Notes: generated from the sequence alone by a model not told the origin. A stretch of 64,000 nt of DNA from an uncultured Chloroflexia bacterium (GCA_963810095.1 CAWEMM010000010.1:1-64000); one strand, 5' to 3'; positions 50,249-64,000 are shown, numbered from the stretch's first letter. Numbers and translations are program-made.

Positions 50249-50605
50249 ATGCAGCTTCGTGAGGTCATGGCGACGCTGGGCGCGCGCCTGATATCTTCGC
50301 ATTGCGATCCCACCACCGAAATCCGCGCCGGGTTCGCGGCCGATCTGATGAGCGACGCCTTGCGCTACGACCTTTCGCAAGCGCTCCTGGTTTCGGGTCT
50401 CGCGAATCCCCAGGTCGTTCGGACCGCGGAAATGGCCGATGTGGCGGCGATCCTGATGGTGCGCGGCAAAATACCGCCGGCGGATACGCTCGACCTTGCG
50501 GAGGAGATCGGCATCCCTTTTTTGAGCACGGAGCTCACCATGTTTGAGTCGTGCGGCCGGCTCTTTTGTGCGGGTCTATCGCCCTGTAAGCGTCTATACT
50601 CCTGA
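50249..50605 (+). CDS. DRTGG domain protein
   Basis: FAADLMSDAL, GLANPQVVRTAEM, VRGK, MFESCGRL. Confidence 0.88.
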   Translation: MQLREVMATLGARLISSHCDPTTEIRAGFAADLMSDALRYDLSQALLVSGLANPQVVRTAEMADVAAILMVRGKIPPADTLDLAEEIGIPFLSTELTMFESCGRLFCAGLSPCKRLYS

Positions 50606-51546
50606 TGTCCCCCACCGAGGTCTTTAAGGCGCAGGAACTGGTCTACGAGCTGAGGATCGGCGACATCATGACGCGCGAGCTGATCACGGTGACGCCCGAG
50701 ACGACGATGCGCGCGGTCAAGCAATTGCTGCGAGACCAGAAGATCTCCGGGCTGCCGGTGATGCGCGAGGAGCAACTGGTTGGCATCATCAGCATCGAGA
50801 ACCTGATCCGCGCGCTCGAGGCGAACGACCTCGACGCCGAGGTCAACCGCTACATGTCGACGCTCCTATTCACGATTGGCGAGCGCGAGTCCGCGGTGCG
50901 GGCGCTTAACGTGTTCGGCCGGGCCGGGGTCGGCCGGCTGCCGGTCGTCGACGACGACGGCAAGCTGGTTGGCATTCTCACTCCCGGCGACATCACGCGG
51001 GGGGTGCTGCGGGCGCTCGAGCGAGCGTATCACGAGGAAGAGATCCGCAAGTACCGCGTGCGGCACGTGTTTGAGGACATCACTTCGGACCGCACGAGTC
51101 TGATCCTGCGCTACGACATCACTGTGCGCGACTTCAACAAGGCGGGCCGCGCGTCGAGCCACCTCAAGCAGACGCTCGTCCGCTTGGGCATCGACCCGCG
51201 CATCGTGCGCCGGGTGGCAATCGTATCGTATGAAGCCGAGATGAACATCGTGATTCACTCGGAAACCGGGGGCAACCTGGTGGCCGAGATCAACCCGGAG
51301 CTGATCGCCATCCTCGCGTACGATTCCGGACCAGGGATCGAGGATGTGAAAGCGGCCATGCAGCCGGGCTGGAGCACCGCGCCAGACTGGATTCGCGAGA
51401 TGGGCTTCGGCGCGGGCATGGGACTGGCCAACATCAAGGCCACCGCGGACGAGATGTATCTTGACTCGTGGCCGCGCAAGGGAACGAAGCTGGAAGCGGT
51501 CATCTACCTAAAACCCGGGGAGGGGAAGGGAAACCATGAATCTTAA
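50605..51546 (+). CDS. CBS-pair fused to RsbT/RsbW-like GHKL Ser/Thr kinase
   Basis: ISGLPV and GRLPV CBS repeats; YEAEMNIVIH, DSGPGI, GWSTA, GFGAGMGLANIK. Confidence 0.88.
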   Translation: MSPTEVFKAQELVYELRIGDIMTRELITVTPETTMRAVKQLLRDQKISGLPVMREEQLVGIISIENLIRALEANDLDAEVNRYMSTLLFTIGERESAVRALNVFGRAGVGRLPVVDDDGKLVGILTPGDITRGVLRALERAYHEEEIRKYRVRHVFEDITSDRTSLILRYDITVRDFNKAGRASSHLKQTLVRLGIDPRIVRRVAIVSYEAEMNIVIHSETGGNLVAEINPELIAILAYDSGPGIEDVKAAMQPGWSTAPDWIREMGFGAGMGLANIKATADEMYLDSWPRKGTKLEAVIYLKPGEGKGNHES

Positions 51547-51871
51547 GGCCATTGTCGACGCGCTCGAACTGCGGGTGGCTGCGGGCGGCGAGCGCCTGGA
51601 TGGCGAAGTAACGGGCGGCTACAGCTCAGACCTGTTGAGCTGTGCGATGGCGGGCGCCGGCAAGGGCGACGTCTGGGTGACGCTGCAGGGGCATCTGAAC
51701 GTGGTGGCCGTGGCCAGCCTGAACGAGTTGGCGGCGGTCATCATCACGGAGAACAAGCCCGTGGCTGCGGAGACGGCGAGCAAGGCCGAAGAAGAAGGCG
51801 TCGTCCTCCTGCAAACCCCGCTGTCCTCCTACCAGGTCATCGGCCGCTTGTGGGATCTCGGGGTGCGTTGA
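51536..51871 (+). CDS. Second DRTGG domain protein
   Basis: GGYSSDLLS..M, VWVTLQGHLNVVAVA. Confidence 0.88.
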   Translation: MNLKAIVDALELRVAAGGERLDGEVTGGYSSDLLSCAMAGAGKGDVWVTLQGHLNVVAVASLNELAAVIITENKPVAAETASKAEEEGVVLLQTPLSSYQVIGRLWDLGVR

Positions 51872-51872
51872 T

Positions 51873-51935
51873 TAAACACAAAGACACCAAGGCACAGCGT
51901 TTTCGAGCCCTAGCGTCCTTGTGTCTTTGTGTCTA
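51873..51935. repeat. Palindromic repeat with 8-nt periodic arms (CACnAAGr family)
   Basis: acacaaagacaccaaggcac ... gtccttgtgtctttgtgt. Confidence 0.7.
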
Positions 51936-51938
51936 AAG

Positions 51939-52688
51939 ATGCCTTCCATGCACACGATCTACGCTGACCTGCACCTGCACACGGTCCTCTCGGCGTGCGC
52001 CGAGGTCGAGATGGTTCCCCCGCTGATCGTGCGTCGCGCGCTGGAGTTGGGGCTTAACCTGCTCGCTGTCACCGATCATAACGCGGCCGCGAACTGCGCC
52101 GCGGTGATGCAGGCAGCGGAGGGGACCGGGCTCATCGTCGTGCCGGGAATGGAAGTGCAGACGGCCGAGGAAGTTCACATGCTGTGCCTGTTTGAGACGC
52201 TCGAGCAGGCGCTGACGTGGCAGGGCATCGTGTTCGACCACTTGCCCGACCTGCCAAACAACGAGGACGCCTTCGGCGGGCAATATGTCGTGGACCGCGA
52301 GGGCGACTACGTCCGGACCGAGGGACGGCTCTTGGCTACGTCGTGCGACCTCGCGGTGGAAGAGGCAGCGCGGCGGGTCACAGCGCTGGGCGGCCTGCCC
52401 ATCCCCGCCCACATCGACCGGGATATGTTTAGCCTCATCGCCAACCTCGGCTTTGTGCCGCGCGATCTCCCCGTGCCCGCACTCGAGCTTTTTCGCCTGA
52501 CGCAGCCCCAGCAACTCATCGCGACGCATCCCGAAATCGCCGCCTATCCTCTCGTGCGCGACAGCGACGCACACCAACTGAGCGACATGCGCCGGAGCGT
52601 TGTTTTCGAGGCCGAGACGGTCTCGTTCGATTCCCTTCGCAGCGCCCTGGGGGCCAGGAGTATGAGGTTGTACCACAAGGACCGCTGA
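51939..52688 (+). CDS. PHP-family phosphoesterase
   Basis: DLHLHT, TDHN, GMEV..EEVH, AHIDR, SDAH. Confidence 0.9.
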   Translation: MPSMHTIYADLHLHTVLSACAEVEMVPPLIVRRALELGLNLLAVTDHNAAANCAAVMQAAEGTGLIVVPGMEVQTAEEVHMLCLFETLEQALTWQGIVFDHLPDLPNNEDAFGGQYVVDREGDYVRTEGRLLATSCDLAVEEAARRVTALGGLPIPAHIDRDMFSLIANLGFVPRDLPVPALELFRLTQPQQLIATHPEIAAYPLVRDSDAHQLSDMRRSVVFEAETVSFDSLRSALGARSMRLYHKDR

Positions 52689-52815: not shown

Positions 52816-53298
52816 ATGCCACTTATGATTGAAGACTTGAGCACCCTCGATTTCGCTCCCCTGGATGCCATCCTCGAGGAGTACGGCGGCCAGAAAGGCG
52901 CAGTGATCCCGATTCTGCAGCATGCGCAGGAAGCCTACGGCTACCTGCCGCGCGAGGTGTTGCAGGAAATCTCGACGCGCACGCACATCCCGCTCAGCAA
53001 CCTGCTTGGCGTTGCCACCTTCTACGCCCAGTTCCGGCTCAGCCGCCGGGGCAAGCACCTGATCCGCGTCTGCGACGGCACCGCCTGCCACGTGCGCGGT
53101 GCGTCGAAGTGCATCGAGTCGGTCGAAAAACAACTCGGCGTGGCCGCAGGCAGCACGTCGGAAGATTACGAATACACAATGGAAATCGTGTATTGCCTGG
53201 GCTCGTGCGGGCTCGCGCCCGTCGCGGTGGTCGACGACAAGGTCTACGGCCGGCTGACGCCGAACAGCCTCGTCGAGCAGCTCGAGGCGCTGGGGTAA
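52816..53298 (+). CDS. NuoE/HoxE/HydC-like [2Fe-2S] subunit
   Basis: YGYLP, GVATFY, CDGTACH, CLGSC. Confidence 0.93.
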   Translation: MPLMIEDLSTLDFAPLDAILEEYGGQKGAVIPILQHAQEAYGYLPREVLQEISTRTHIPLSNLLGVATFYAQFRLSRRGKHLIRVCDGTACHVRGASKCIESVEKQLGVAAGSTSEDYEYTMEIVYCLGSCGLAPVAVVDDKVYGRLTPNSLVEQLEALG

Positions 53299-53373
53299 TC
53301 CCGTTCGGGAGACCTGCGGGGGTCTCGACCCTCAGCGAAGCTGAGGCAACCCCGCAGGTGTGAAGATTGACGT

Positions 53374-53997
53374 ATGCTCGAACTCGCCCTGCACGTTCTG
53401 GACATCCTACAGAATACCGTCGAAGCCGGGGCAACCCGCGTCGACGTGAGGATTGCCGAGGATGAACCTGCGGACCGGCTGACTATCACGGTGGCCGACA
53501 ACGGGCGGGGGATGGATGCGCAAACGGTGGAGCGGGTGCTGAACCCGTTTTACACGACCCGGACCACCCGCCACGTCGGGTTAGGGCTGCCGCTCTACGC
53601 CGAGGCAGCCGAGACGGCGGGCGGCGGGCTGACCGTTCAGTCAGAGCCGGGCCAGGGGACGACGGTCGAAGCGACGTTCCGGTTGAGCCACCCGGACCGC
53701 CAGCCGCTCGGCGATATGTCTGGCACGCTGGTGGCTTTCCTGCTGTCAGAGCGGGCGCCGGAGCTGGTGTACAGGCACCGCGTGATAAGAAACCAGGTTT
53801 CTGCCACGCCACGTAGTGGCGCAGAAACACTGGTTTCTCAGGAGCGCGAGTTTACTTTTGACACCGCCGCCATCCGCGCCGAGCTGGATGGCGTGCCGCT
53901 GAACGAGCCCATCGTCGCGCAGTGGCTGGCCGGATTTATCGCCGAAGGCGAGGCTGAAATTAAGAAACCCGGTTTCTCCGAGAAGTTGGGTTTCTAA
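53374..53997 (+). CDS. Stand-alone GHKL (histidine kinase-like) ATPase typical of hydrogenase operons
   Basis: ELALHVLDILQN, DNGRGM, PFYTTR..R.VGLGLP, HPDRQPLGD; no H-box domain. Confidence 0.88.
   Translation: MLELALHVLDILQNTVEAGATRVDVRIAEDEPADRLTITVADNGRGMDAQTVERVLNPFYTTRTTRHVGLGLPLYAEAAETAGGGLTVQSEPGQGTTVEATFRLSHPDRQPLGDMSGTLVAFLLSERAPELVYRHRVIRNQVSATPRSGAETLVSQEREFTFDTAAIRAELDGVPLNEPIVAQWLAGFIAEGEAEIKKPGFSEKLGF
53788..53838. repeat. AGAAAC..GGTTTCT element lying in frame within a CDS
   Basis: agaaaccaggtttct..gccacgtagtggc..agaaacactggtttct, 51 bp (17 codons). Confidence 0.65.
53963..53995. repeat. AGAAAC..GGTTTCT element forming the CDS 3' end
   Basis: agaaacccggtttct-ccg-agaagttgggtttct, last T starts the TAA stop. 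Confidence 0.65.
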
Positions 53998-54008
53998 GGA
54001 GTAACAGA

Positions 54009-54398
54009 ATGCCCAAGCTCAAATCCCTGGATGACCTGAAGCGCGTCCGCGATGAGGCGCAGCAGGCCTTGAAGACCCGATTGGACACCGGCACGACCAT
54101 CATTGTGGGCATGGGCACGTGCGGCATCGCCGCCGGCGCGCGCGACACCATGCACGCGATCCTGGCCGAACTGGCTGCCCGGAACATCGACGCGCACGTG
54201 ACCACGGTAGGCTGCATCGGCCAATGCGTCAAAGAGCCGCTCGTCGACATCGAGCAGGCGGGCCAGCCGCGCATCACCTATGCCAACGTCAGGCCCGACA
54301 TGGTGTCTCGCCTGATCGAAGAGCACCTCATCAACAACCGGCCGGTCGATGAATGGGTGATCGGGCGGCTTGAAACGAACGTTGCACCAACGAACTGA
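54009..54398 (+). CDS. Thioredoxin-like [2Fe-2S] ferredoxin (HydD/HndB-like)
   Basis: VGMGTCGIAAGAR, VGCIGQC..EP. Confidence 0.9.
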   Translation: MPKLKSLDDLKRVRDEAQQALKTRLDTGTTIIVGMGTCGIAAGARDTMHAILAELAARNIDAHVTTVGCIGQCVKEPLVDIEQAGQPRITYANVRPDMVSRLIEEHLINNRPVDEWVIGRLETNVAPTN

Positions 54399-54411
54399 AC
54401 GGAGCGGAGCC

Positions 54412-54879
54412 ATGGAACAGTTCACCAGCGTCGAAGCCGTACTCAAGCGGGCCATCCAGCTTGAAGACGAGGCGATGACCATGTACAGCACTGCGGCGCA
54501 GTCGGTCAAGGACGATGCGGTGCGCCAGCGGCTGGAGGAAATGGCGGCACAGGAGCGCGGTCACAAGACCAAGCTCGAAGACGTGCTTTCCGGCAACGTC
54601 CGGTGGGCCATTCGCCGCTCCAAAGCCGAGCCGGTTACGGACCTGCGGCTGAGCGACCACCTGGTCGGTGGGTCGCTGGACCCGAACGCTGACTACCAGG
54701 ACGTGCTGCTCTTTGCGGCACGGCGCGAGAAGGCGGCGCACGATTTTTACAAGGCCATGGGCGAGATGATCGACGACAAGCTCACCCAGAACCTGTTCGA
54801 GATGCTCGCGCAAGAAGAGCTGCGGCACAAGTACGTTCTCGAAAAGACGTACGAAGAGGTCGTTTACAAGGATTTCTAA
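54412..54879 (+). CDS. Ferritin/rubrerythrin-like diiron protein
   Basis: Duplicated AI..E..Y and E..H motifs (QERGH, EELRH); no rubredoxin domain. Confidence 0.85.
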   Translation: MEQFTSVEAVLKRAIQLEDEAMTMYSTAAQSVKDDAVRQRLEEMAAQERGHKTKLEDVLSGNVRWAIRRSKAEPVTDLRLSDHLVGGSLDPNADYQDVLLFAARREKAAHDFYKAMGEMIDDKLTQNLFEMLAQEELRHKYVLEKTYEEVVYKDF

Positions 54880-54881
54880 AC

Positions 54882-57800
54882 ATGGATAGTAACCTCGTTT
54901 TGAACCCTGGCTCTACGGCCTCTTCTGACCTCTCGCAGGAGGGTTCGCTGCTGCGCGCCGAGGTCTTGATCTGCGGGGGCACGGGCTGCCACTCCTCGAA
55001 TTCGCACGAGGTGGTCACGGCCATCCAGGCAGAGGTAGCCCGCCGCGGGCTCGAGGGCGAAGTACGCGTGGTGCCGACCGGCTGCCGCGGCTTCTGCTCG
55101 ATGGGCCCGGTCATGATGATCTACCCGGAAGGCATCCTTTACTGCCAGGTGCAGGCGTCGGACGTCCCGGAGATCGTCGAAGAGACCCTGCTGAAGGGGC
55201 GCCAGGTGGCCCGGCTGGCCTATCAGGAGCCGAACCAGCACAAGGCGCTGCCCTTCTACCACGACATCCCGTTCTACGGCAAGCAGATCCGCATTGCGCT
55301 GCGCAACTGCGGGTTGATCAACCCGGAGTCGATCGAAGAGTACATCGCCCACGACGGCTATGCGGCGCTGGGCAAGGTGCTCTCGACCATGACGCCGGAG
55401 GACGTGCTGCGCGAGATGAAGGATTCGGGCTTGCGCGGCCGCGGCGGTGCGGGCTTCCTGACCGGCCTGAAGTGGGAATTCGCCCGGCGCAGCCAAAACT
55501 TCCCAAAGTACGTGATCTGCAACGCGGACGAAGGCGACCCCGGCGCGTTCATGGACCGCTCAATCCTGGAAGGCGACCCGCACAGCCTGATGGAAGGCAT
55601 GATCATTGCGGGCTACGCGATCGGCGCCAGCCAGGGGTACGTCTACTGTCGGGCCGAGTACCCGCTCGCGATCCAGCGCCTGAAAACCGCGATCCAGCAG
55701 GCGCACGAGTATGGACTGCTGGGCGAAAACATTCTCGAGTCTGGCTTCTCCTTCGACCTGCGGGTCAAGGAAGGGGCGGGTGCGTTCGTCTGCGGCGAAG
55801 AGACCGCGCTGATGGCCTCGATCGAAGGCAAGCGCGGCGAGCCGCGGCCCCGCCCGCCGTTCCCCGCAGTGGCCGGCCTGTGGGCCAAGCCGTCGAACGT
55901 CAATAACGTCAAATCCTACGCCATGTCGCCCCAGATCATGCTGAAGGGCGCGAAATGGTTCAAGGCTATCGGTCCCGAGAAGTCGCCCGGCACCGCGATC
56001 TTCGCCCTTACCGGCAAGATCAACAACACGGGCCTGATCGAAGTGCCGATGGGCATCTCGCTGGGCGAGATCATTTTCGACGTCGGCGGCGGCATCCCCA
56101 ACGGCAAGCCGTTCAAGGCCGTGCAGACCGGCGGCCCGCTGGGCGGCTGTCTGCCCGCTTCGGCGCTGAACACGCCGGTCGACTTCGACTCGCTCACGGC
56201 GGCCGGCGCGACGATGGGCTCGGGCGGCATGATCGTCGTGGACGACGACACCTGTATGGTCGAGTTCGCCAAGTACTTCCTGCAGTTCGCCACGGCGGAA
56301 TCGTGCGGCAAGTGCGTGCCCTGCCGGGTGGGCGGTATGCGTCTGCTCGAGGTGCTCACGCGCATCAGCGAGGGCCATGGCACGCAGCAGGACGTCGAGG
56401 ATATCAAGTACATTTCGGCCAATATGCAGAGTGCGAGCCTGTGCTCCCTCGGCCAACTTACGCCAGGGCCGGTCATGTCGGCCCTGCGTTTCTTTGCCGA
56501 CGAGTTCCGCGAGCACGTCGACAACCAGAACTGCCCCGCGGGCCAGTGCAAGGCACTGGTGCGCGCGAAGTGCATCAATGCTTGCCCGGCCGGCGTCGAA
56601 AGCCCGGCCTACCTGGCCCTGGTCGCCCAGGGCCGCTACGCGGAAGGGCTTGAAGTCCATCGCCAGCGCAACCCGTTCGCGTCGATCTGCGGCCGGGTGT
56701 GCCCCGCCTTCTGCGAGCAGAAGTGCCGCCGCGGCGAGATCGACGAGGCGATCAGCATCCGGTTGGTCAAGCGCTTTATGGCCGATCACGAGTTCACCAC
56801 GCCGTGGGCGCCGGCAAAGAGCGAGAGCGAGAAGGTGCTGCACGTCGGCGTCGTGGGCGCGGGCCCGGGCGGCCTCACCGCCGCGCTGCGGCTGGCGCAA
56901 AAGGGCTACAAGGTCACCGTCTACGAGAAGCTGCCCATCCCGGGCGGCATGATGGCGGTCGGCATCCCCGACTACCGCCTGCCAACCGACGCGCTCCTGA
57001 GCGAAATCCAGAACGTCATGCGGGCCGGCGTCGAGATCAAGTGCGGCACCGCCCTGGGCGCCGACTTCACCCTGGACGACCTCTTCGAGAAGGAACTCTG
57101 CAACGCGATCGTGCTCGCGATCGGCGCACACAAGAGCCGCAAGCTGGGCATTCCGGGCGAGGAGAAGTCGGGCGTGCTGCACGGCACCGACTTCCTGCGC
57201 GAGGTGGGCCTGGTGCAGCGAGGGGCCGGCGTGGGCACTCTGCCGGACGTCGCGGGGAAGAAGGTCGCCGTGGTCGGCGGCGGCAACGTGGCGCTGGACG
57301 CCGCTCGCACGGCCTGGCGGCTGGGCGCCAGCGAGGTCCACGTGATCTACCGCCGCACGCGGGTCGACATGCCTGCGTATGCGGAAGAGGTCAAGGCCGC
57401 GGATGAGGAAGGTATCCAGTTCCACTTCCTCGCCAACCCGGTCGAGGTGATCGGCGGCGACAAGGTTACCGGTGTCGTGGTGCAGCGGCAGCGCCTGGGC
57501 GAGTTCGACCAGGGCGGACGCCGGCGCCCCGTGCCCATCGAGGGCGACACCTTCGTCCTGCCGGTCGACATGGTCGTCCCTGCCATCGGCCAGACGACCG
57601 ACACGTCGTGGATGCAGAAGGCCGGCATCCAGGCCAGCCGCGGCAGCACCTTTGTGGTGGGAGACGCGTACCAGACCTCACGCGGCGGCGTCTTCGCTTG
57701 CGGCGATGCGGTGAGCGGACCCGCAACGGTCATCGAGGCGGTGGCGCAGGGCAACCTGGTGTCGGTTGCGGTCGACCACTGGCTGAAGACGGGCGAATAC

Positions 57801-58088
57801 CAGCGGCCGAAATACGAGACGCCCCGGCTGGACGTGCCCCAGCTTTACAACCTGGACGACTACGCCACCGCGCAGCGGCCCCACGTCCCTGAGCTCGAAC
57901 TCGGCAACCGGGCCGGCTCGTTCAAAGAAGTCGAATTGGGCTATGACGAGCACACGGCGCGCGAAGAAGCGCGGCGCTGCCTGCGCTGCGACCTGGAGTG
58001 GCTCGACTACATGAAGCTACCGCGTCCGGTGGCTGAACCGGTCGTCGAGCAGGCGCCCCTGGCGGGGGACCCCCTTGCGAGGGGATAG
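54882..58088 (+). CDS. NuoF/HydB-like FMN subunit fused to a GltD/NfnB-like FAD pyridine-nucleotide oxidoreductase
   Basis: CGGTGC..CRGFC, GRGGAGF, NADEGDPGAFMDR, CGEETAL, CGKCVPCR..C; then CINACP, CGRVCPAFCEQKC, GAGPGG, GGGNVALD, YRRTR, GD, EARRCLRC. Confidence 0.92.
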   Translation: MDSNLVLNPGSTASSDLSQEGSLLRAEVLICGGTGCHSSNSHEVVTAIQAEVARRGLEGEVRVVPTGCRGFCSMGPVMMIYPEGILYCQVQASDVPEIVEETLLKGRQVARLAYQEPNQHKALPFYHDIPFYGKQIRIALRNCGLINPESIEEYIAHDGYAALGKVLSTMTPEDVLREMKDSGLRGRGGAGFLTGLKWEFARRSQNFPKYVICNADEGDPGAFMDRSILEGDPHSLMEGMIIAGYAIGASQGYVYCRAEYPLAIQRLKTAIQQAHEYGLLGENILESGFSFDLRVKEGAGAFVCGEETALMASIEGKRGEPRPRPPFPAVAGLWAKPSNVNNVKSYAMSPQIMLKGAKWFKAIGPEKSPGTAIFALTGKINNTGLIEVPMGISLGEIIFDVGGGIPNGKPFKAVQTGGPLGGCLPASALNTPVDFDSLTAAGATMGSGGMIVVDDDTCMVEFAKYFLQFATAESCGKCVPCRVGGMRLLEVLTRISEGHGTQQDVEDIKYISANMQSASLCSLGQLTPGPVMSALRFFADEFREHVDNQNCPAGQCKALVRAKCINACPAGVESPAYLALVAQGRYAEGLEVHRQRNPFASICGRVCPAFCEQKCRRGEIDEAISIRLVKRFMADHEFTTPWAPAKSESEKVLHVGVVGAGPGGLTAALRLAQKGYKVTVYEKLPIPGGMMAVGIPDYRLPTDALLSEIQNVMRAGVEIKCGTALGADFTLDDLFEKELCNAIVLAIGAHKSRKLGIPGEEKSGVLHGTDFLREVGLVQRGAGVGTLPDVAGKKVAVVGGGNVALDAARTAWRLGASEVHVIYRRTRVDMPAYAEEVKAADEEGIQFHFLANPVEVIGGDKVTGVVVQRQRLGEFDQGGRRRPVPIEGDTFVLPVDMVVPAIGQTTDTSWMQKAGIQASRGSTFVVGDAYQTSRGGVFACGDAVSGPATVIEAVAQGNLVSVAVDHWLKTGEYQRPKYETPRLDVPQLYNLDDYATAQRPHVPELELGNRAGSFKEVELGYDEHTAREEARRCLRCDLEWLDYMKLPRPVAEPVVEQAPLAGDPLARG

Positions 58089-58109
58089 AAGGGAGGCAGC
58101 TTCACCACA

Positions 58110-59867
58110 ATGGCACTCGTAAACATCACCATCAACGGTCAGAAGCTACAGTGCCAGGCGGGACAGACGGTGTTGCAGGTGGCGCGAGCCAGCGACATCG
58201 ACATCCCGACCCTGTGCGACCACCCGGCAGTCACCCCATGGGGCGGTTGCCGCATGTGCCTGGTGGAGATCGAGAAGCAGCGCGGCCTCCAGCCAGCTTG
58301 TACGTTCCCCGTCTCCGAAGGGATGGTCGTTGCCACGCACAGCGAGCGCGTTGTCGCGGCCCGCAAGTTCGTGCTCGAGCTGCTCTTCTCCGAGCGGGTG
58401 CATTACTGCATGTACTGCGCGATGAGCGGCAACGAGGGCACGACGCAGTGCGAGCTCCAGGCCCTGGCCTACGAGCACGGCTTGACCCACTGGCGCTATG
58501 AGCCCAACACCAGCCACCCGTGGCCCGTCGACGGCTCGCGCAAGTACTTCTTCATGGATCACAGCCGCTGCATCTTGTGCCGCCGCTGCATTCGGGCGTG
58601 CGACGAGGTGGCGGCGAACCACACGCTGGGCGTGCGCGAGCGCGGCGCGAAGACGATGATCATCGCCGACGTGGACGTTCCGCTTGGCGAGTCGAGCTGC
58701 GTTTCGTGCGGCTCCTGCCTCCAGGTGTGCCCGACCGGCGCCCTGATCGACCGGCGCTCGGCTTACATGGGCGGGACCGGCGAGCTGCAGCGCAAGCAGA
58801 CGACCTGCACCGCTTGTTCCGTCGGCTGCACGGTCGAAGCCGTCTACCGGAGCAACCAACTCCTGCGCGTTGAAGGCGTGTGGGACGCGCCGAACGGCGG
58901 CTTGCTGTGCGTCAAGGGCCGCTTTGAGACCACCGAGCCGAAGCCGAAGCGGGTGACCAGCCCGATGATCAAGCGGGACGGCGAGTGGGTCAAGGCGACC
59001 TGGCCTGAGGCGACCGAGTTCGTGGCGGGCAAGCTGAAGGACGCCGGCAAGGTGGCCGGCCTGGCGTCGCCGCGGGCGACCGTGGAGTCGCTGGGCGTAT
59101 TCAAGCACCTGCTGGCCGACGTGTTGCACAGCGACCAGATCGGCTTGCTCTACGGCGCGGCGCCCCAGGACCTGGGGCCCAAAGCGAGCCTCGCGACGGT
59201 GGCGGGCGCGGATTGCATCATCCTCGTCGGCGGCGATCCGCTCGACGGGCAGAAGGTGTTGGGTTACAAGGTCAAGCGGGCCGTGGACCTGGGCGCGGCG
59301 CTCACAATCGTTGCCGACGGACCCAATGCGCTCGATCCTTGGGCAGCCCGGCACTTGCCGATGAGTGAACTGAGCGAGGTTGCGACGGCCATCGCGGCTG
59401 CGGTACGCCCGGTCGTGCTCTACGCCGCGCATCTGCCCCCCGACGTCTATTCCTTCCTGCGCAGCCTGCCCGAGAAGACGCGCTACCTGGGGCTGGTCGA
59501 GGGCGCGAATGCGGCGGGCGCGGCGCAAATGGGGATCAAGGCCAAGGCTGTGACGGGCGATGCACTGTTTGTGCTGGCCGCAGACGAGACGAAGGACGGG
59601 CACCAGCTGCCCCCGGCCGCGTTCACCGTGGTGCAAGCAGCGTACTGGACGCCGACCGCCGAGCAGGCCGATGTGGTACTGCCCAGCCTGGACTGGTCGG
59701 AACAGCAGGGGCACGTGATCAATATGGAAGGCGCGAGCCTGCCGGTTCAGCCGTTCCTGCAGCCGCCGGCCGGCGTGCAGGCGGACGTAGCGACGCTGGG
59801 CGCGCTGGCGACCCGGCTGCGCGAGCCCGCGGCGCGGGCGTCCTGGCCCCAGGCAGAGAGGAGCTAG
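58110..59867 (+). CDS. NuoG/HoxU/HydA-like Fe-S subunit with shortened molybdopterin-family domain
   Basis: C..CRMC..C [2Fe-2S], H.CMYC..C, CILCRRCIRAC, CVSCGSCLQVC, CTACSVGC..C; ADVVLP..E..G..N.EG. Confidence 0.9.
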   Translation: MALVNITINGQKLQCQAGQTVLQVARASDIDIPTLCDHPAVTPWGGCRMCLVEIEKQRGLQPACTFPVSEGMVVATHSERVVAARKFVLELLFSERVHYCMYCAMSGNEGTTQCELQALAYEHGLTHWRYEPNTSHPWPVDGSRKYFFMDHSRCILCRRCIRACDEVAANHTLGVRERGAKTMIIADVDVPLGESSCVSCGSCLQVCPTGALIDRRSAYMGGTGELQRKQTTCTACSVGCTVEAVYRSNQLLRVEGVWDAPNGGLLCVKGRFETTEPKPKRVTSPMIKRDGEWVKATWPEATEFVAGKLKDAGKVAGLASPRATVESLGVFKHLLADVLHSDQIGLLYGAAPQDLGPKASLATVAGADCIILVGGDPLDGQKVLGYKVKRAVDLGAALTIVADGPNALDPWAARHLPMSELSEVATAIAAAVRPVVLYAAHLPPDVYSFLRSLPEKTRYLGLVEGANAAGAAQMGIKAKAVTGDALFVLAADETKDGHQLPPAAFTVVQAAYWTPTAEQADVVLPSLDWSEQQGHVINMEGASLPVQPFLQPPAGVQADVATLGALATRLREPAARASWPQAERS

Positions 59868-59871
59868 CCGC

Positions 59872-60420
59872 ATGGCTGAGAATGAAAAGCCAACAGTCGC
59901 CAGTGAGTGGCTGACGGGCTGCGCAGGCTGCCACATGTCCTTGTTGGATATGGACGAGCGTATCGTCGACATTGTAACGGCTGCGACGCTGTGGTCGACG
60001 CCGATCACCGATCTGAAGCATCCGCCGGAAGAAGGCGTCACGGTCGGCATCCTCGAGGGGGGCATCAACAACTCCACAACCGAGGAAGTCGCCAAGATGA
60101 TGCGGGCGCGCTCGAAGATCCTGATTGCCTTGGGCGACTGCGCGGTGTTCGGCGGCGTGCCGGCCATGCGCAACGCTTGCGGCATCCAGGAGGCGCTCCA
60201 ACGGGCATACGTGGAGAGCGAGAGCACGGTCGACGGCCAGATCCCGAACCACCCGGACATCGCGGTGATGCAGGAGACCCGGCCCATCGACGCCGTCGTG
60301 CCGGTCGACATCTACTTGCCCGGCTGTGCACCGAGTGCAGACGCGATCTTCTACGTGTTGTTCGAGCTGGCAAACGGCCGCATGCCCGAGGTCAAGGGCA
60401 AATTCCTGGACTGGCATTAA
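59872..60420 (+). CDS. hoxY: [NiFe]-hydrogenase small subunit, single-cluster type
   Basis: [24 protein letters not shown]; 182 aa with no signal peptide. Confidence 0.92.
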
Positions 60421-60429
60421 GGGGGACGT

Positions 60430-61854
60430 ATGCCAACGAAGATCATGATTGAGCCCGTAACCCGCATCGAGGGACACGCCAAGGTTGGCGTGTACCTGGA
60501 CGACCAGGGCCAGGTGGAAAAGGCGGTCTTCCACGTCAACGAGTTCCGCGGCTTCGAGAAGTTCTGCGAAGGCCGCATGTTCTTCGAGATGCCGCTCATC
60601 ACCGAGCGCATCTGCGGCATCTGCCCGGTGAGCCATCATCTGGCTAGTGCTAAGGCATGCGACCAGATTGTGGGCGCGGACGTGCCGCGGCCGGCCAGTC
60701 TGCTGCGCGAGCTGATGCACATGGGGCAGATCATCCAGTCTCACTCCATGCATGTGTTCGAACTGGGCGGGCCCGATCTGTTGCTGGGGTTTGACTGCGA
60801 CCCGAAGATCCGCAACGTTGTGGGGCTGTATGGCGCGAACCCCGAGCTGACCGTCAAGGCGATCGGCCTGCGCAAGTACGGCCAGGACATCATCGCGCGG
60901 CTGGGCGGCCGGCGCGTGCACCCGAACTTCGCGGTGCCGGGCGGCGTGAACCAGGCGCTGGCGGTGACCGACCGCGACGCGCTGCTGGGCGGGATCGATG
61001 GGACTATCGCGGACATCCGCCTGGGTCTTGGCATCATCAAGGGCTGGGTGGAGGCGAACTACGAGGATGTCGCCAAGTTCGGCGTCTTCTCCACCAACTA
61101 CCTCGGCATGGTCGACGAAAACAACGCGGTGCAGCTCTACGATGGCGACGTGCGTATCGTGGACAAGCAGCGGCAGTTCATCAACAAGTTCGACGGCCGC
61201 AAGTACCTCGACTACATCAGCGAGCGGGTGGAGAACTGGACGTACCTGAAGTTCCCGTACTACAAATCGCTGGGCTGGCCAGACGGCGTGTATCGCGTCG
61301 GGCCGCTGGGCCGGCTCAACGCGGCCGAACGCATGGCCACGCCGCTGGCGCAGGAAGAGTATGAAATCTTCCAGCAGGTGCGCGGGGGCCAGGTGCTCGA
61401 GGGAACTCTATACTACCACTACGCCCGCATGATTGAGGACTTGTACGCGGCCGAGCGGGCGAAGGAAATCCTGCTCGACCCGGATGTGCTCAGCACGGAC
61501 ATCCAAGATAACCGCCCGGTGACCAACGCCGAGGGCGTGGGCGTCATCGAAGCCCCGCGCGGCACGCTGTGGCATCACTACTGGGTCGACGAGAACGGTC
61601 AGCTCGAAAAGGTCAACCTGATCGTGGCAACGGGCAACAACAACTGGGCCATGAGCAAGGCGGTCGACTCGGTGGCGAAGACCTACGTGGACGGCAAGAA
61701 CGTCACGGAGGGCCAGCTCAACCGCATCGAAGCGGCCATCCGGGCCTATGACCCGTGCCTGTCGTGCTCCACGCATGCGCTCGGGCAGATGCCGCTCGAA
61801 GTCGTGGTGTATGACGACTCGGGAGACGAAGTCAACCGGGTCATGCGCGGATAA
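60430..61854 (+). CDS. hoxH: [NiFe]-hydrogenase large subunit, group 3d-like
   Basis: [15 protein letters not shown]1 [21 protein letters not shown]2 [10 protein letters not shown] followed by a cleavable ALGQMPL tail. Confidence 0.95.
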
Positions 61855-61870
61855 GCTACGCTCCTACTGC

Positions 61871-61925
61871 AACATGGGCGCGACTGCGGCGGCCAGCGGC
61901 CGCCGCAGTCGCGCCCATGTTTGTT
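61871..61925 (+). terminator. 24-bp perfect hairpin closing the hydrogenase operon
   Basis: aacatgggcgcgactgcggcggcc-agc-ggccgccgcagtcgcgcccatgtt. Confidence 0.75.
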
Positions 61926-62073: not shown

Positions 62074-64000
62074 ATGCAGCTTCGCATCGGTCTCCGTTTC
62101 CTGCGCGCGCTGGGCGTTGTTCTGATCGCACTCCTCGTCGCTCTCCTGCAGGACAATCGCGCCGGCGTCCATGCCGCTTTGTCTCCGACCGCGTCATATT
62201 CGCAAGCCAACCTTATCTCCAATAGCCAATTCGTCTACGGTCCCGCCGCGCAGCGTTTCGATCTTGCAGGCTACCTGGCGCGCGCGGGCAGCCCGCTGGC
62301 CGCCGACGCCCCGACACTTGAAGCCTGGTGCGGCTACGCCAGCGTTAACCCGCAGGTCGTCCTCGTGCTCCTCGAACTTGACGGCCGGCAAGTGACGAAT
62401 GGCTGGCACGCCCCGCTGCCGGCCGGGCAACGCGATGCGGACATCGGCGCGCTCGTCGTGCAGCTGGCCGAGCGCTTCTATGCCCACTTATACCGGTATG
62501 GCGAGCGAGCCCCCTCCGGCATGGCCCGAACAGGCTCATCGGTCGCGCCGGCGGCTGCAGGCTTCGCCGGCGTCTCCTCGGGCACCTATGCGCTCGTCGC
62601 CTCGCTCGGCCAGACGCTCGCGCCCGCCGAGTTCGAGCGGGCTGTAGCTCCCACCGGTATGGGCAGCTTCGCCGCCACCTGGGCCCGGCTCTTTCCGGGC
62701 AGTGACCCACTGGACGCCAGCGTCTCGATCACGCCTGACGCTCTGCCCCCCGCTGACCTCTTCCAGTTCCCCTTCCCAATCGGCCAGACGTGGTGGTTCA
62801 ACGGCGCGCACAGCTGGAACGGCGGCGGACTGGCCCCACCCTACTCGTCCATGGACTTCTTTACCACGGCGGACAGCTGTGCCGCGCCGCCTGCCGGCGA
62901 CTGGGCCGTTGCCGCGGCCGGGGGCAGCGGCTATTATCCCAACACCGGCGCGCCGTGCTGGTACCGCATCGACCACGCGGGTGGATGGACGACCAGCTAT
63001 TACCACCTGCGTAACGTCGTTGGCAAAGGGCCGGCGGCGGCAAACGGGCGGATCGGGACGATTGGCTGCGAGACCTGCGTCGGGGGCTATGCAACGGGTC
63101 CGCATGTCCACTTTAGCCTGCTGTACAACGGCGCGTACGTCGGCCTGGAGGGGGTGAAGCTGTCCGGGTGGACGGTGCACACGGGGAGCGGGAACTACGA
63201 CAGCGGCTCGCTCGAGCGCGACGGAGTCATCTTGCGTCCCTATGCCTCCGTGCGCAACGATGGGATTCTGTCTGGGACGCCCACCCCGACGCTTACGCCG
63301 TCTCGCACCCCCACCGCGACCCCCACGCCTACGCGCGTCCCGTCTGCCACCCCGACGTCGCCCGCCGCGCCGGCCGCCCGCTACCTCTATCCGCCGGCGC
63401 AGGGCTTGCTCCGTGTCTGCCCCGTCACGCTCATCGCTCAGGCGGAGGGGACAGGCGGCGTGCGCGAGGTGAAGTTCCTGGCTCGCTGGGGCGGAGCGCT
63501 GCGCGAACTCGGGACAGATACCGACGGCACAGACGGCTGGAAGCTGACGTGGGACTGCCAGGATGCGCCAGACGGCGCCGCCACCCTCAGCCTCAGCGCA
63601 TGGGACATGAGTGGGCAAGAGGTTCTGGCGGACGCGGCCGCGACCGCCGTGACCATCAGCAAAGCATGCACGGAGGGGACTTACCGCACGGCGTTCTTCG
63701 CCAATCCCACGTTTTCCGGCTCGCCGGCGTCTTCCTGGTGCAAAGCGTCGAGCATCAGGTACAACTGGGGGACGGCTTCGCCCGGGGCCGGCATCCCTGG
63801 CGGTGACAACTTCTCGGCCCGCTTCCGGGGCAGCTTTCGCTTTGAGCCGGGACGATACCGTTTCAAGGGCGAGGTGAATGACGGGATAAGGGTTTGGATT
63901 GACCGGGTGCTTGCACTGGACGAATGGCACGACCACGCCGAGCCGGAGACTCTCCAGTTCGATAAGGACCTGAGCGCAGGATTGCACGAAGTGCGGGTGG
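62074..64000 (+). CDS. Secreted LasA/beta-lytic-like M23 metallopeptidase with Pro/Thr linker, Ig-like and PA14-like domains (runs off window)
   Basis: Read manually: GGAGG RBS, signal MQLRIGLRFLRALGVVLIALLV, prodomain FDLAGYL..WCGYASVNPQV, GAHSWN..SMDF, YYHL, GPHVHFSL, DNFSARFRG..DGIRVWID; absent from the ORF track because no stop is in the window. Confidence 0.85.
   Translation, partial: MQLRIGLRFLRALGVVLIALLVALLQDNRAGVHAALSPTASYSQANLISNSQFVYGPAAQRFDLAGYLARAGSPLAADAPTLEAWCGYASVNPQVVLVLLELDGRQVTNGWHAPLPAGQRDADIGALVVQLAERFYAHLYRYGERAPSGMARTGSSVAPAAAGFAGVSSGTYALVASLGQTLAPAEFERAVAPTGMGSFAATWARLFPGSDPLDASVSITPDALPPADLFQFPFPIGQTWWFNGAHSWNGGGLAPPYSSMDFFTTADSCAAPPAGDWAVAAAGGSGYYPNTGAPCWYRIDHAGGWTTSYYHLRNVVGKGPAAANGRIGTIGCETCVGGYATGPHVHFSLLYNGAYVGLEGVKLSGWTVHTGSGNYDSGSLERDGVILRPYASVRNDGILSGTPTPTLTPSRTPTATPTPTRVPSATPTSPAAPAARYLYPPAQGLLRVCPVTLIAQAEGTGGVREVKFLARWGGALRELGTDTDGTDGWKLTWDCQDAPDGAATLSLSAWDMSGQEVLADAAATAVTISKACTEGTYRTAFFANPTFSGSPASSWCKASSIRYNWGTASPGAGIPGGDNFSARFRGSFRFEPGRYRFKGEVNDGIRVWIDRVLALDEWHDHAEPETLQFDKDLSAGLHEVRV

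Follow-up and report, generated by a model that had tools for sequence, protein, structure and literature searches.

Eight closely packed open reading frames (ORFs) on the plus strand of a 64,000-nt stretch of DNA from an uncultured Chloroflexia bacterium (GCA_963810095.1 CAWEMM010000010.1:1-64000; the window, meaning this whole stretch) are best explained, judging from their sequences, as the operon of a cytoplasmic [NiFe] hydrogenase of the HydABCSL (Bfu) lineage in which the low-potential exit arm of the flavoprotein has been replaced. The run spans 52816-61854, with intergenic gaps of at most 21 nt after its first gene, and contains a single 1068-aa protein (54882-58088) in which domain searches and alignments support a B subunit minus its ferredoxin-like B3/B4 domain, plus a complete, putative GltD/NfnB-type module. 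The domain swap as such is already in print, for [FeFe] enzymes in 2018 and 2024 and for an archaeal hybrid in 2024; the family is uncharacterised, and the bacterial NiFe form is a further member of it. The hydrogenase subunits, with the two halves of the fusion listed separately, are encoded as follows.

52816-53298, + strand: HydC/BfuC (NuoE-like), 160 aa, the C1 [2Fe-2S] carrier (2Fe-2S_thioredx, E 2e-48)
54882-56561, + strand: HydB/BfuB core of the fusion, aa 1-560 (Pfam; 7t2r_B match; conserved ligands)
56562-58088, + strand: GltD/StnC-type module of the fusion, aa 561-1068 (Fer4_20 and Pyr_redox_2; alignments to 9n5u_A, 9bov_A, 8oh5_C, 5jca_L and 4ylf_B)
58110-59867, + strand: HydA/BfuA (NuoG-like) conduit, 585 aa, without H-cluster (Pfam; 7t2r_A match)
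59872-60420, + strand: NiFe hydrogenase small subunit, short form, 182 aa (Oxidored_q6)
60430-61854, + strand: NiFe hydrogenase large subunit, 474 aa (NiFeSe_Hases; DPCLSCSTH motif and C-terminal extension)

The fused HydB subunit

ORF calling and Pfam reproduced the gene order, from the hydC-like gene to hoxH, that an initial annotation had read from the DNA. The NiFe-HydABCSL complex of A. mobile (7T2R) was the top solved match for four of the five subunits: B (7t2r_B, 786 bits, query 23-561 on chain positions 3-541 of 597), L (7t2r_D, 558 bits, followed by MvhA with 408 and HoxH (5xf9_D) with 400), A (7t2r_A, 274 bits, query 4-345) and S (7t2r_E, 179 aa, 157 bits). HydC matched T. kivui HydC (8a6t_C) first and 7t2r_C second, and its alignment to 8a6t_C keeps the Cys motif. 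The HydA-like protein comprises Fer2_4, NADH-G_4Fe-4S_3, Fer4, Molybdop_Fe4S4 and Molybdopterin domains; Fe_hyd_lg_C was absent from it by Pfam, and the only match to that family lay ~150 kb from the operon. No NfnS-like gene was found by Pfam within the operon, and no NCBIfam model reached its cut-off on either the fusion or the large subunit.

Along the fusion, Pfam identified 2Fe-2S_thioredx, Complex1_51K, SLBB, NADH_4Fe-4S, Fer4_20 and Pyr_redox_2. The first of these, at residues 26-101, corresponds to the N-terminal thioredoxin-like [2Fe-2S] domain (B5), and the NuoF-type domain set of BfuB is given by Complex1_51K (152 bits), NADH_4Fe-4S (96 bits) and a weak SLBB match (21.7 against a 27-bit cut-off). 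The sites of the core are the N-terminal [2Fe-2S], flavin mononucleotide (FMN)/NAD(H), SLBB, B1 [4Fe-4S] and a linker Cys3His site (B2/Zn) formed by C458, H545, C551 and C556. In an alignment of 24 fused homologs that are 64-93% identical to the window protein, C68, C72, C458, H545, C551 and C556 were invariant, and C31 and C36 were conserved in at least 90%. All motifs quoted in the initial annotation (ADEGDPGAFM, PPFP, GGPLG, the Cys3His set and GGGNVA..YRRT) were recovered in the translation, which holds NADEGDPGAFM, RPPFPA, QTGGPLGG and DDDTC..EH..CPAGQC in the core and CINACP..CGRVCPAFCEQKC, VGAGPGG and GGGNVA..YRRT in the module. The parts associated with gating in Bfu enzymes, i.e., the N-terminal [2Fe-2S] domain, the Cys3His site and HydC, have all been kept, as have the other components of a NiFe-Bfu complex: a BfuC with its [2Fe-2S] motif, an H-cluster-free BfuA, and NiFe small and large subunits.

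What is missing is the ferredoxin-type 2x[4Fe-4S] C-terminal domain (IPR017896; B3/B4), as had been proposed. Apart from Fer4_20, no ferredoxin-type Fer4 family was detected on the fusion by Pfam at E <= 0.001, and the match to 7t2r_B stops at position 541 of 597, just short of the C-terminal dicluster domain of that chain. Only 8 residues separate the last Cys of the Zn site (C556) from the first Cys of the module (C564), which together with the end of the 7t2r_B match indicates that the cluster domain of the module starts at the place of B3/B4.

Pfam and the alignments resolve the module (~510 aa) into two [4Fe-4S] sites, a flavin adenine dinucleotide (FAD) site, an NADP(H)-type Rossmann fold and a C-terminal RCLRC tail, in agreement with the GltD-type clusters, FAD and NADP(H) motif initially noted in place of the ferredoxin arm. 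Eight cysteines (564, 568, 603, 607, 611, 615, 1033 and 1036) are invariant among the 24 homologs and would be enough for two [4Fe-4S] clusters; K630, R699, GGG799-801 and YRR823-825 are invariant as well, and GxGxxG is present. Residues 561-1046 matched the GltD-like domain of NfnA/StnC best (9n5u_A, 390 bits; 9bov_A, 354; 8oh5_C, 312), followed in HMMER score order by NfnL, Tm NfnB, GltD and DPD. The module aligns throughout with the NADPH-using StnC, NfnA, NfnL and GltD, and its NADPH-side motif is shared with enzymes solved with NADPH. Its C-terminal tail (~1000-1042, RCLRC) corresponds to the N-terminal segment of NfnL (5jca_L 8-51; 4ylf_B 14-43), so that the module is circularly permuted relative to NfnL and GltD, as it is in StnC and NfnA. 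In an AlphaFold 2 (AF2) model of the fusion, generated from the 24-sequence alignment with a mean per-residue confidence score (pLDDT) of 70.1 and a predicted template-modelling score (pTM) of 0.53, the module superposed on NfnL (5JCA, 4YLF) and GltD in Foldseek with template-modelling (TM) scores of 0.79-0.82 (5jca_L, 0.79) and root-mean-square deviations (rmsd) of 2.8-3.0 Å.

K630 aligns with StnC K170, an unusual ligand of the FAD-proximal cluster, at a position where NfnL has Glu. In the available text of Kumar et al., the FAD of StnC is described as a non-bifurcating, plain 2e/1e converter, and this behavior is tied to the Lys/Glu difference. Since K630 represents the StnC state, the sequence fits a putative FAD that serves as an NADP(H) port rather than as a second bifurcation center, with the Lys/Glu criterion drawn from one paper and one alignment. 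A two-flavin bifurcating enzyme, which the initial annotation had offered as an alternative, is weakened by the same invariant Lys.

The initial annotation had also asked whether a lost stop codon could have created the fusion. Lost stop and misassembly were ruled out by the fused ORF in 120 of 120 listed clusters and in at least 68 of 301 class genomes, and by three short independent contigs from public runs that bridge the junction: X1 (56474-56624, 2 differences), X2 and the RNA run X10. No indel was listed at the junction in any of the three. Such public-run contigs are short, of low depth and mostly 88-95% alike, and they are silent on expression, habitat and operon structure; the best-matching DNA runs may be the source sample of the window. 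A gene-boundary shift from a Stn-like operon was likewise ruled out, as the StnC/NfnA module follows the A1 [2Fe-2S] domain. The profile PRK12814 matches HydA 1-104 with its positions 1-105 and B 561-1046 with its positions 101-582.

Occurrence, partners and known counterparts

The initial annotation had suspected that NuoF-GltD fusions might already exist in databases, and they proved to be numerous. A word-indexed search scored 7999 candidates, and all 120 of the clusters listed contained both halves (64-93% identical, 837-1155 aa). Among the matches listed, at least 68 of 301 genomes of the same class carried a near-full-length fusion, defined as a match from residue 60 or earlier to residue 1020 or later, and 360 further matches lay beyond those listed. 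In a 50%-identity library, 6 of the 150 best representatives covered both halves from the N-terminal domain, and three more covered the fusion from approximately residue 133-150. The nearest named relatives were Anaerolineae metagenome-assembled genomes, and single-ORF fusions outside the class occurred in records labelled Smithella, Bacillota, Armatimonadota, Nitrospiraceae, Actinomycetota and Bacteroidales. True fusions made up only 9 of 80 retained related loci found with general NuoF motifs, which accounts for the low number; two further long matches were separate genes. A different kind of B variant was also seen in class genomes, in which the NuoF half and the start of the module are matched and a different C-terminal part follows (G194, G097, G054, G244 and G267, matches 24-736 in ORFs of 1070-1145 aa; G206, G033, G076, G117 and G151, matches 23-762 in ORFs of 907-954 aa).

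To describe what the fused gene is paired with, 40 loci of the class were chosen, not drawn at random (comprising the 20 best full-length matches with adequate contigs plus another 20 of greater divergence), and their neighbors were scored by BLAST with the window's proteins. The partners downstream were distributed as follows.

13 of 40 loci: HydA-like protein with NiFe small and large subunits, two of these loci with an extra HydC and unfused HydB between
16 of 40 loci: split, probably selenocysteine-containing, formate dehydrogenase
5 of 40 loci: short HydA-like protein and HdrA-like protein
1 of 40 loci: Mvh-type NiFe genes
5 of 40 loci: partner not resolved, as the contig ends or no match was obtained

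In three loci from other phyla (Bacillota, Armatimonadota and Nitrospiraceae), the partner was an [FeFe] HydA with Fe_hyd_lg_C and Fe_hyd_SSU. Because one core serves NiFe, formate dehydrogenase, Hdr-like and [FeFe] partners, HydC and the fused B act together as an independent unit that provides the nucleotide side for low-potential donors. The nearest relative of the window's B subunit (84%), which has the same upstream genes including the rubrerythrin-like one, precedes a formate dehydrogenase and not a NiFe hydrogenase. The host genome itself encodes a second fusion on the same contig (contig 10, 71649-74843, 60% identical) with its own HydC, directly before a formate dehydrogenase; this set occupies 71080-77817, ~7-14 kb past the end of the window, and has a FocA-like transporter gene upstream. 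Its formate dehydrogenase reads as three ORFs (Fer2_4..Molybdop_Fe4S4, Molybdopterin and Molydop_binding), a split that probably reflects a selenocysteine codon or a frameshift.

Two of these arrangements can be traced to individual class loci. In L141 and L142 (relatives G022 and G251), an additional HydC and a HydB that is unfused and has no tail stand between the fused B and HydA-HydS-HydL, placing two flavoprotein modules in series before one NiFe hydrogenase. In L143, L144, L150, L152 and L153, the proteins encoded after the fused core are HydA-like (230-300 aa) and HdrA-like (600-730 aa), and the fetched stretch contains neither a hydrogenase nor a formate dehydrogenase, which makes this a further partner type.

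A FastTree phylogeny of NuoF halves (135 sequences, 51 fused and 84 unfused; a single-gene tree whose sample is biased by locus choice) placed the window protein in an all-fused clade of 34 with support of 1.0. Among the 30 labelled leaves of this clade, parsimony required 8 changes between NiFe and formate dehydrogenase partners, hardly fewer than with shuffled labels (mean 10.0; 8 or fewer in 142 of 1000 shuffles). The sister group consists of 7 unfused B subunits with 57-87-aa tails, 6 of them linked to formate dehydrogenase. The remaining 17 fused leaves are scattered among unfused ones, which implies that the C-terminal arm (none, ferredoxin-like or GltD) has changed repeatedly.

The closest solved relative is NiFe-HydABCSL of A. 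mobile (7T2R/7T30, PMC8880783), which has the same C, B, A, S and L set. Hydrogenases of both operons combine a HydA without H-cluster and a short HydS with a B subunit that keeps the FMN site, B1, Cys3His and N-terminal [2Fe-2S], and hisK-like and hydD-like genes occur in both. In contrast to A. mobile, the window's B lacks the C-terminal 2x[4Fe-4S] (B3/B4) that forms the route to ferredoxin and has the ~510-aa module instead, and the operon adds a rubrerythrin-like gene as well as upstream CBS, DRTGG and PHP genes. According to the Bfu literature, B3/B4 is the low-potential exit, and the HydC cluster moves from FMN over to B3/B4, next to which bound ferredoxin was observed in T. sibiricus NfnABC (PMC11829005, PMC12018979, PMC10482914).

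A HydBC-type core combined with an NADPH/FAD module is also found in StnABC/NfnABC (S. ovata 8OH5, C. saccharolyticus 9BOV, T. sibiricus 9N5U). These have the most similar GltD-like domain and share the C-terminal CxxC, the Lys at the proximal-cluster ligand position and the NADPH motif. However, their module sits in the NuoG-like subunit behind a [2Fe-2S] domain, feeding the mid-potential chain, and their B subunit keeps B3/B4 for ferredoxin, whereas in the window it is B that carries the module, at the expense of B3/B4, and the input side is taken by a NiFe hydrogenase. The background given in the initial annotation (B3/B4 as the ferredoxin exit in Bfu, and a GltD module on the NuoG-like subunit in Stn/NfnABC) is thus borne out by the literature. 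NfnL of NfnSL (5JCA/4YLF) has the same fold and the same cluster, FAD and NADPH motifs as the window module, but carries Glu in place of Lys630 and an N-terminal rather than C-terminal CxxC, and it pairs with NfnS.

The swap itself has been described from sequences, and the novelty assigned to it in the initial annotation was overrated, as available passages of three papers describe it (PMC6163223, PMC11406978, PMC11216029) and the fused core is not specific to NiFe. An 'enlarged beta-subunit with a GltD domain' was reported for the [FeFe] enzyme of Vallitalea guaymasensis in 2018 (PMC6163223), and in 'sub-type I BfuB' of group A3 [FeFe] enzymes, DPD_II and an FAD/NAD(P) domain replace B3/B4 and were proposed as a possible second bifurcation center (Zheng & Huang 2024, PMC11406978). 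The B3/B4-to-GltD exchange is the same in the window; those enzymes are three- or four-subunit [FeFe] hydrogenases, whereas here a NiFe small and large pair stands behind an H-cluster-free HydA. No biochemistry is contained in the available passages of either paper. A glutamate-synthase-type domain on HydB is also part of an archaeal hybrid group F [FeFe]/group 3 [NiFe] complex (Greening et al. 2024, PMC11216029, available text). This complex resembles the window operon in placing a HydB with a GltD-type domain beside HydC, a NuoG-like conduit and a NiFe large subunit (of group 3 there), but its NiFe small subunit is joined to a true [FeFe] H-cluster domain; the window operon is bacterial and has neither such a domain nor such a fusion.

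In Schut et al. 2022 (PMC9304861), a BfuB is recognised by a set of four InterPro domains, one of which is the ferredoxin-type domain; NiFe-Bfu is placed mainly in a clade of six members, and NiFe is attributed to Synergistetes. Fused genes, currently named NuoF or 'FAD-dependent oxidoreductase', lie outside this domain-based definition, and the fused forms probably fall outside the Schut et al. set. That proteins of this kind had been noticed before is implied by the HydDB rule 'GltD ... but not NuoF'. In the full-text literature we found no description of the bacterial NiFe form, the supplements of Bfu papers, which may list such loci, being outside the scope of this search.

Candidate electron routes

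A linkage of H2, NAD(H) and NADP(H), as proposed in the initial annotation, is plausible from these features. We favor, with a probability of about 0.4, a ferredoxin-independent enzyme in which H2 would be linked to NAD(H) at FMN and to NADP(H) at FAD. H2 would be split at the NiFe site of HydL, and electrons would pass via HydS and the chain of clusters in HydA to HydB, where B1 and the FMN, with its NAD(H) site, would receive them. The mobile [2Fe-2S] of HydC would then deliver one electron to the [4Fe-4S] pair of the module, from which it would reach FAD and the NADP(H) site, for a net reaction of 2 H2 + NAD+ + NADP+ <-> NADH + NADPH + 2 H+ without ferredoxin. The module clusters are placed at the B3/B4 position because of the 8-residue linker, the retention of all Bfu parts other than B3/B4, and the partner-independent core. 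Gating features (N-terminal [2Fe-2S], Cys3His and HydC) are tied to bifurcation in Bfu papers and lost in non-bifurcating homologs (PMC9304861, available text). In a fermenter, the direction would probably be towards H2, with NADPH in the role of ferredoxin as the stronger reductant helping NADH re-oxidation. Cellular NADPH lies at about -380 mV. At cellular potentials, the NADH and NADPH pair would average about -330 mV, which by a Nernst estimate would allow H2 up to roughly 100 Pa; the cellular value for NADH, about -280 mV, comes from the available text of PMC9304861. None of the five NuoF homologs of the genome has a B3/B4-type tail (by Pfam for the contig-9 copy; the others by tails of 7-43 aa), and the NfnS+NfnL pair and 2-oxoacid:ferredoxin oxidoreductases of the genome could feed electrons of ferredoxin into the NADPH pool. 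The bound cofactors, the route from C1 through the module clusters to FAD, the NADP(H) specificity, the coupling and the direction are what we infer in this scheme.

Several points weigh against it, beginning with the confidence of the structural model. pLDDT fell below 50 at residues 298-449 (NuoF core) and 559-565 (junction), and the NuoF half fitted solved structures in Foldseek at only ~19-20 Å rmsd; the AF2 model is thus too poor to place the module relative to the core and confirms the predicted module fold alone, leaving the short linker as the argument for the C1-to-module route. NADPH specificity is suggested by motif conservation only. The standard potentials of NAD+ and NADP+ are equal, so that any energetic coupling must rest on cellular ratios, and the span between NAD(H) and NADP(H) is small compared with that of ferredoxin. 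The full-text literature yielded no assay, structure or expression data for any fused member and, in answer to a refuting condition named in the initial annotation, no biochemical description of the architecture. Ferredoxin is still a conceivable partner, given that the NfnL cluster pair of the same fold reduces it, and, for the same domain in archaea, Greening et al. supposed a ferredoxin partner (PMC11216029).

In a reading that we regard as unlikely, the [4Fe-4S] pair of the module would replace B3/B4 and dock ferredoxin as in NfnL, with FAD/NADP(H) as an extra port, so that H2, NAD(H), NADP(H) and ferredoxin would be balanced together by a hydrogenase and Nfn in one. NfnSL passes electrons to ferredoxin through the same cluster pair (PMC10482914, PMC5736913, available text), and 'likely ferredoxin' is the wording used for the archaeal HydB domain (PMC11216029, available text). 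A docking site could also have persisted, as the accessible description of T. sibiricus NfnABC has ferredoxin binding between the C subunit and the cluster domain of B, and six POR_N matches (2-oxoacid:ferredoxin oxidoreductases) indicate that reduced ferredoxin is made by this genome. However, K630 is the StnC state and not the Glu of ferredoxin-reducing NfnL, a simple docking site for ferredoxin would have no need of a complete and invariant FAD/NADPH domain, and the genome keeps a separate NfnS+NfnL pair elsewhere.

The equality of the two standard potentials makes bifurcation unneeded and brings in a plain dual-cofactor hydrogenase, without coupling, in which NAD+ or NADP+ would be reduced independently, each at its own flavin, perhaps with an internal NADH/NADPH transhydrogenase activity. 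StnC-type FAD as a simple converter and the existence of non-bifurcating HydB relatives agree with it (the latter PMC9304861; both from available text), but the Bfu gating parts lost in non-bifurcating homologs are (near-)invariantly kept here, and we consider this reading unlikely too. Improbable, in our view, is a Stn-like wiring with the module on HydA, in which NADPH electrons would enter the mid-potential A chain, FMN/NAD+ would be fed by either H2 or NADPH, and the C1 arm would not be used. The module is indeed nearest to NfnA/StnC (390, 354 and 312 bits), sharing the C-terminal CxxC and the Lys, and hydA starts 21 nt past the module's end; yet the module, tethered to the Zn site of B by 8 residues, has a short reach, the StnC topology differs in having the module after the A1 [2Fe-2S] domain in one chain, and the fused core pairs with very different kinds of A subunit. 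We give very little weight to a module that serves another acceptor or regulation, e.g., polysulfide or a small oxidant (Nso/Sud-type), instead of NADP(H) exchange. Many enzymes that have other partners contain a GltD-fold module (NCBIfam list), NsoC is named a close StnC homolog in the available literature text, and a rubrerythrin-like gene stands directly upstream of the fusion, but the NADPH-type and FAD motifs are invariant and Pfam identified no extra catalytic domain or gene in the operon beyond those named here.

Beyond the single operon, the ferredoxin-independent scheme can be extended to a more doubtful proposal, that HydC plus HydB::GltD is a distinct and widespread electron-confurcating module in which NADPH replaces ferredoxin, producing H2 (NiFe or [FeFe]) or formate (formate dehydrogenase) from NADH and NADPH in Anaerolineae and other anaerobes. 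To our knowledge, bifurcation between two pyridine-nucleotide pools has been demonstrated for no enzyme. If the proposal were true, the confurcating core and NfnSL would provide a ferredoxin-free last fermentation step, and if the core couples H2 or formate to NADH and NADPH without ferredoxin, fermentative redox balance is being modelled with the wrong partners. The scale would be considerable, as the fused core occurs in about a quarter of the sampled class genomes and, with [FeFe] HydA, in other phyla. The family also constitutes a natural experiment in which FMN/C1 gating is kept and the acceptor arm changed, which bears on the Bfu mechanism. The window adds no new principle to this; it provides one clear NiFe example with a formate dehydrogenase twin on the same contig, and the whole family matters more than a single locus.

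Accessory genes and genomic surroundings

Three further genes of the run lie between hydC and the fusion, three more precede it, and a hairpin with a T-rich tail closes it.

50605-51546, + strand: CBS and HATPase_c_2 protein, upstream accessory gene (Pfam; homolog precedes the fused core in many of the 40 related loci)
51536-51871, + strand: DRTGG-domain protein, upstream accessory gene (weak Pfam match, 23.5 bits against a 25.2-bit cut-off; position conserved in related loci)
51921-52688, + strand: PHP-domain protein, upstream accessory gene (Pfam; position conserved in related loci)
53374-53997, + strand: GHKL (histidine-kinase-like) ATPase, 207 aa (HATPase_c, Pfam)
54009-54398, + strand: HydD-like small thioredoxin-like protein, 129 aa (2Fe-2S_thioredx, E 1e-3, below the Pfam cut-off)
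54370-54879, + strand: rubrerythrin/ferritin-like di-iron protein (Pfam Rubrerythrin, Ferritin_2)
61875-61917, + strand: terminator-like hairpin (20-bp stem, 17 G-C pairs)

The CBS, DRTGG and PHP genes (50605-52688) are probably part of the same unit, because they recur before the fused core in many related loci. The GHKL ATPase is the counterpart of hisK in the A. mobile operon, and the HydD-like gene is conserved beside the fused gene. The HydD-like protein resembles the N-terminal [2Fe-2S] domain of HydB, with C38, C69 and C73 as its only cysteines, and may therefore carry no cluster or an unusual one. The true start of the rubrerythrin-like gene is probably Met15 (~54412), with which the annotated overlap with the HydD-like ORF vanishes; this gene immediately precedes the fusion in 6 of the 40 class loci and in locus L006.

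Downstream on the same contig, at ~79778-95395, a set of HdrC/HdrB/HdrA-MvhD-MvhG-MvhA genes with a HycI-type protease is followed by HypD, HypF and a second HycI, so that HypD, HypF and two HycI-type proteases lie 25-35 kb downstream of the operon. The operon, the formate dehydrogenase copy and the Hdr/Mvh/Hyp genes form a 45-kb hydrogen/formate island. Elsewhere in the genome, a 1144-aa protein on contig 6 (1279049-1282483) has a central GltD-type module (Fer4_20 and Pyr_redox_2) flanked by ~460 N-terminal and ~290 C-terminal residues without a Pfam match. On the 3' side of the terminator, positions 62074-64000 encode a large protein with M23 peptidase, Big_7 and PA14 domains, which runs off the window and appears unrelated to the hydrogenase.

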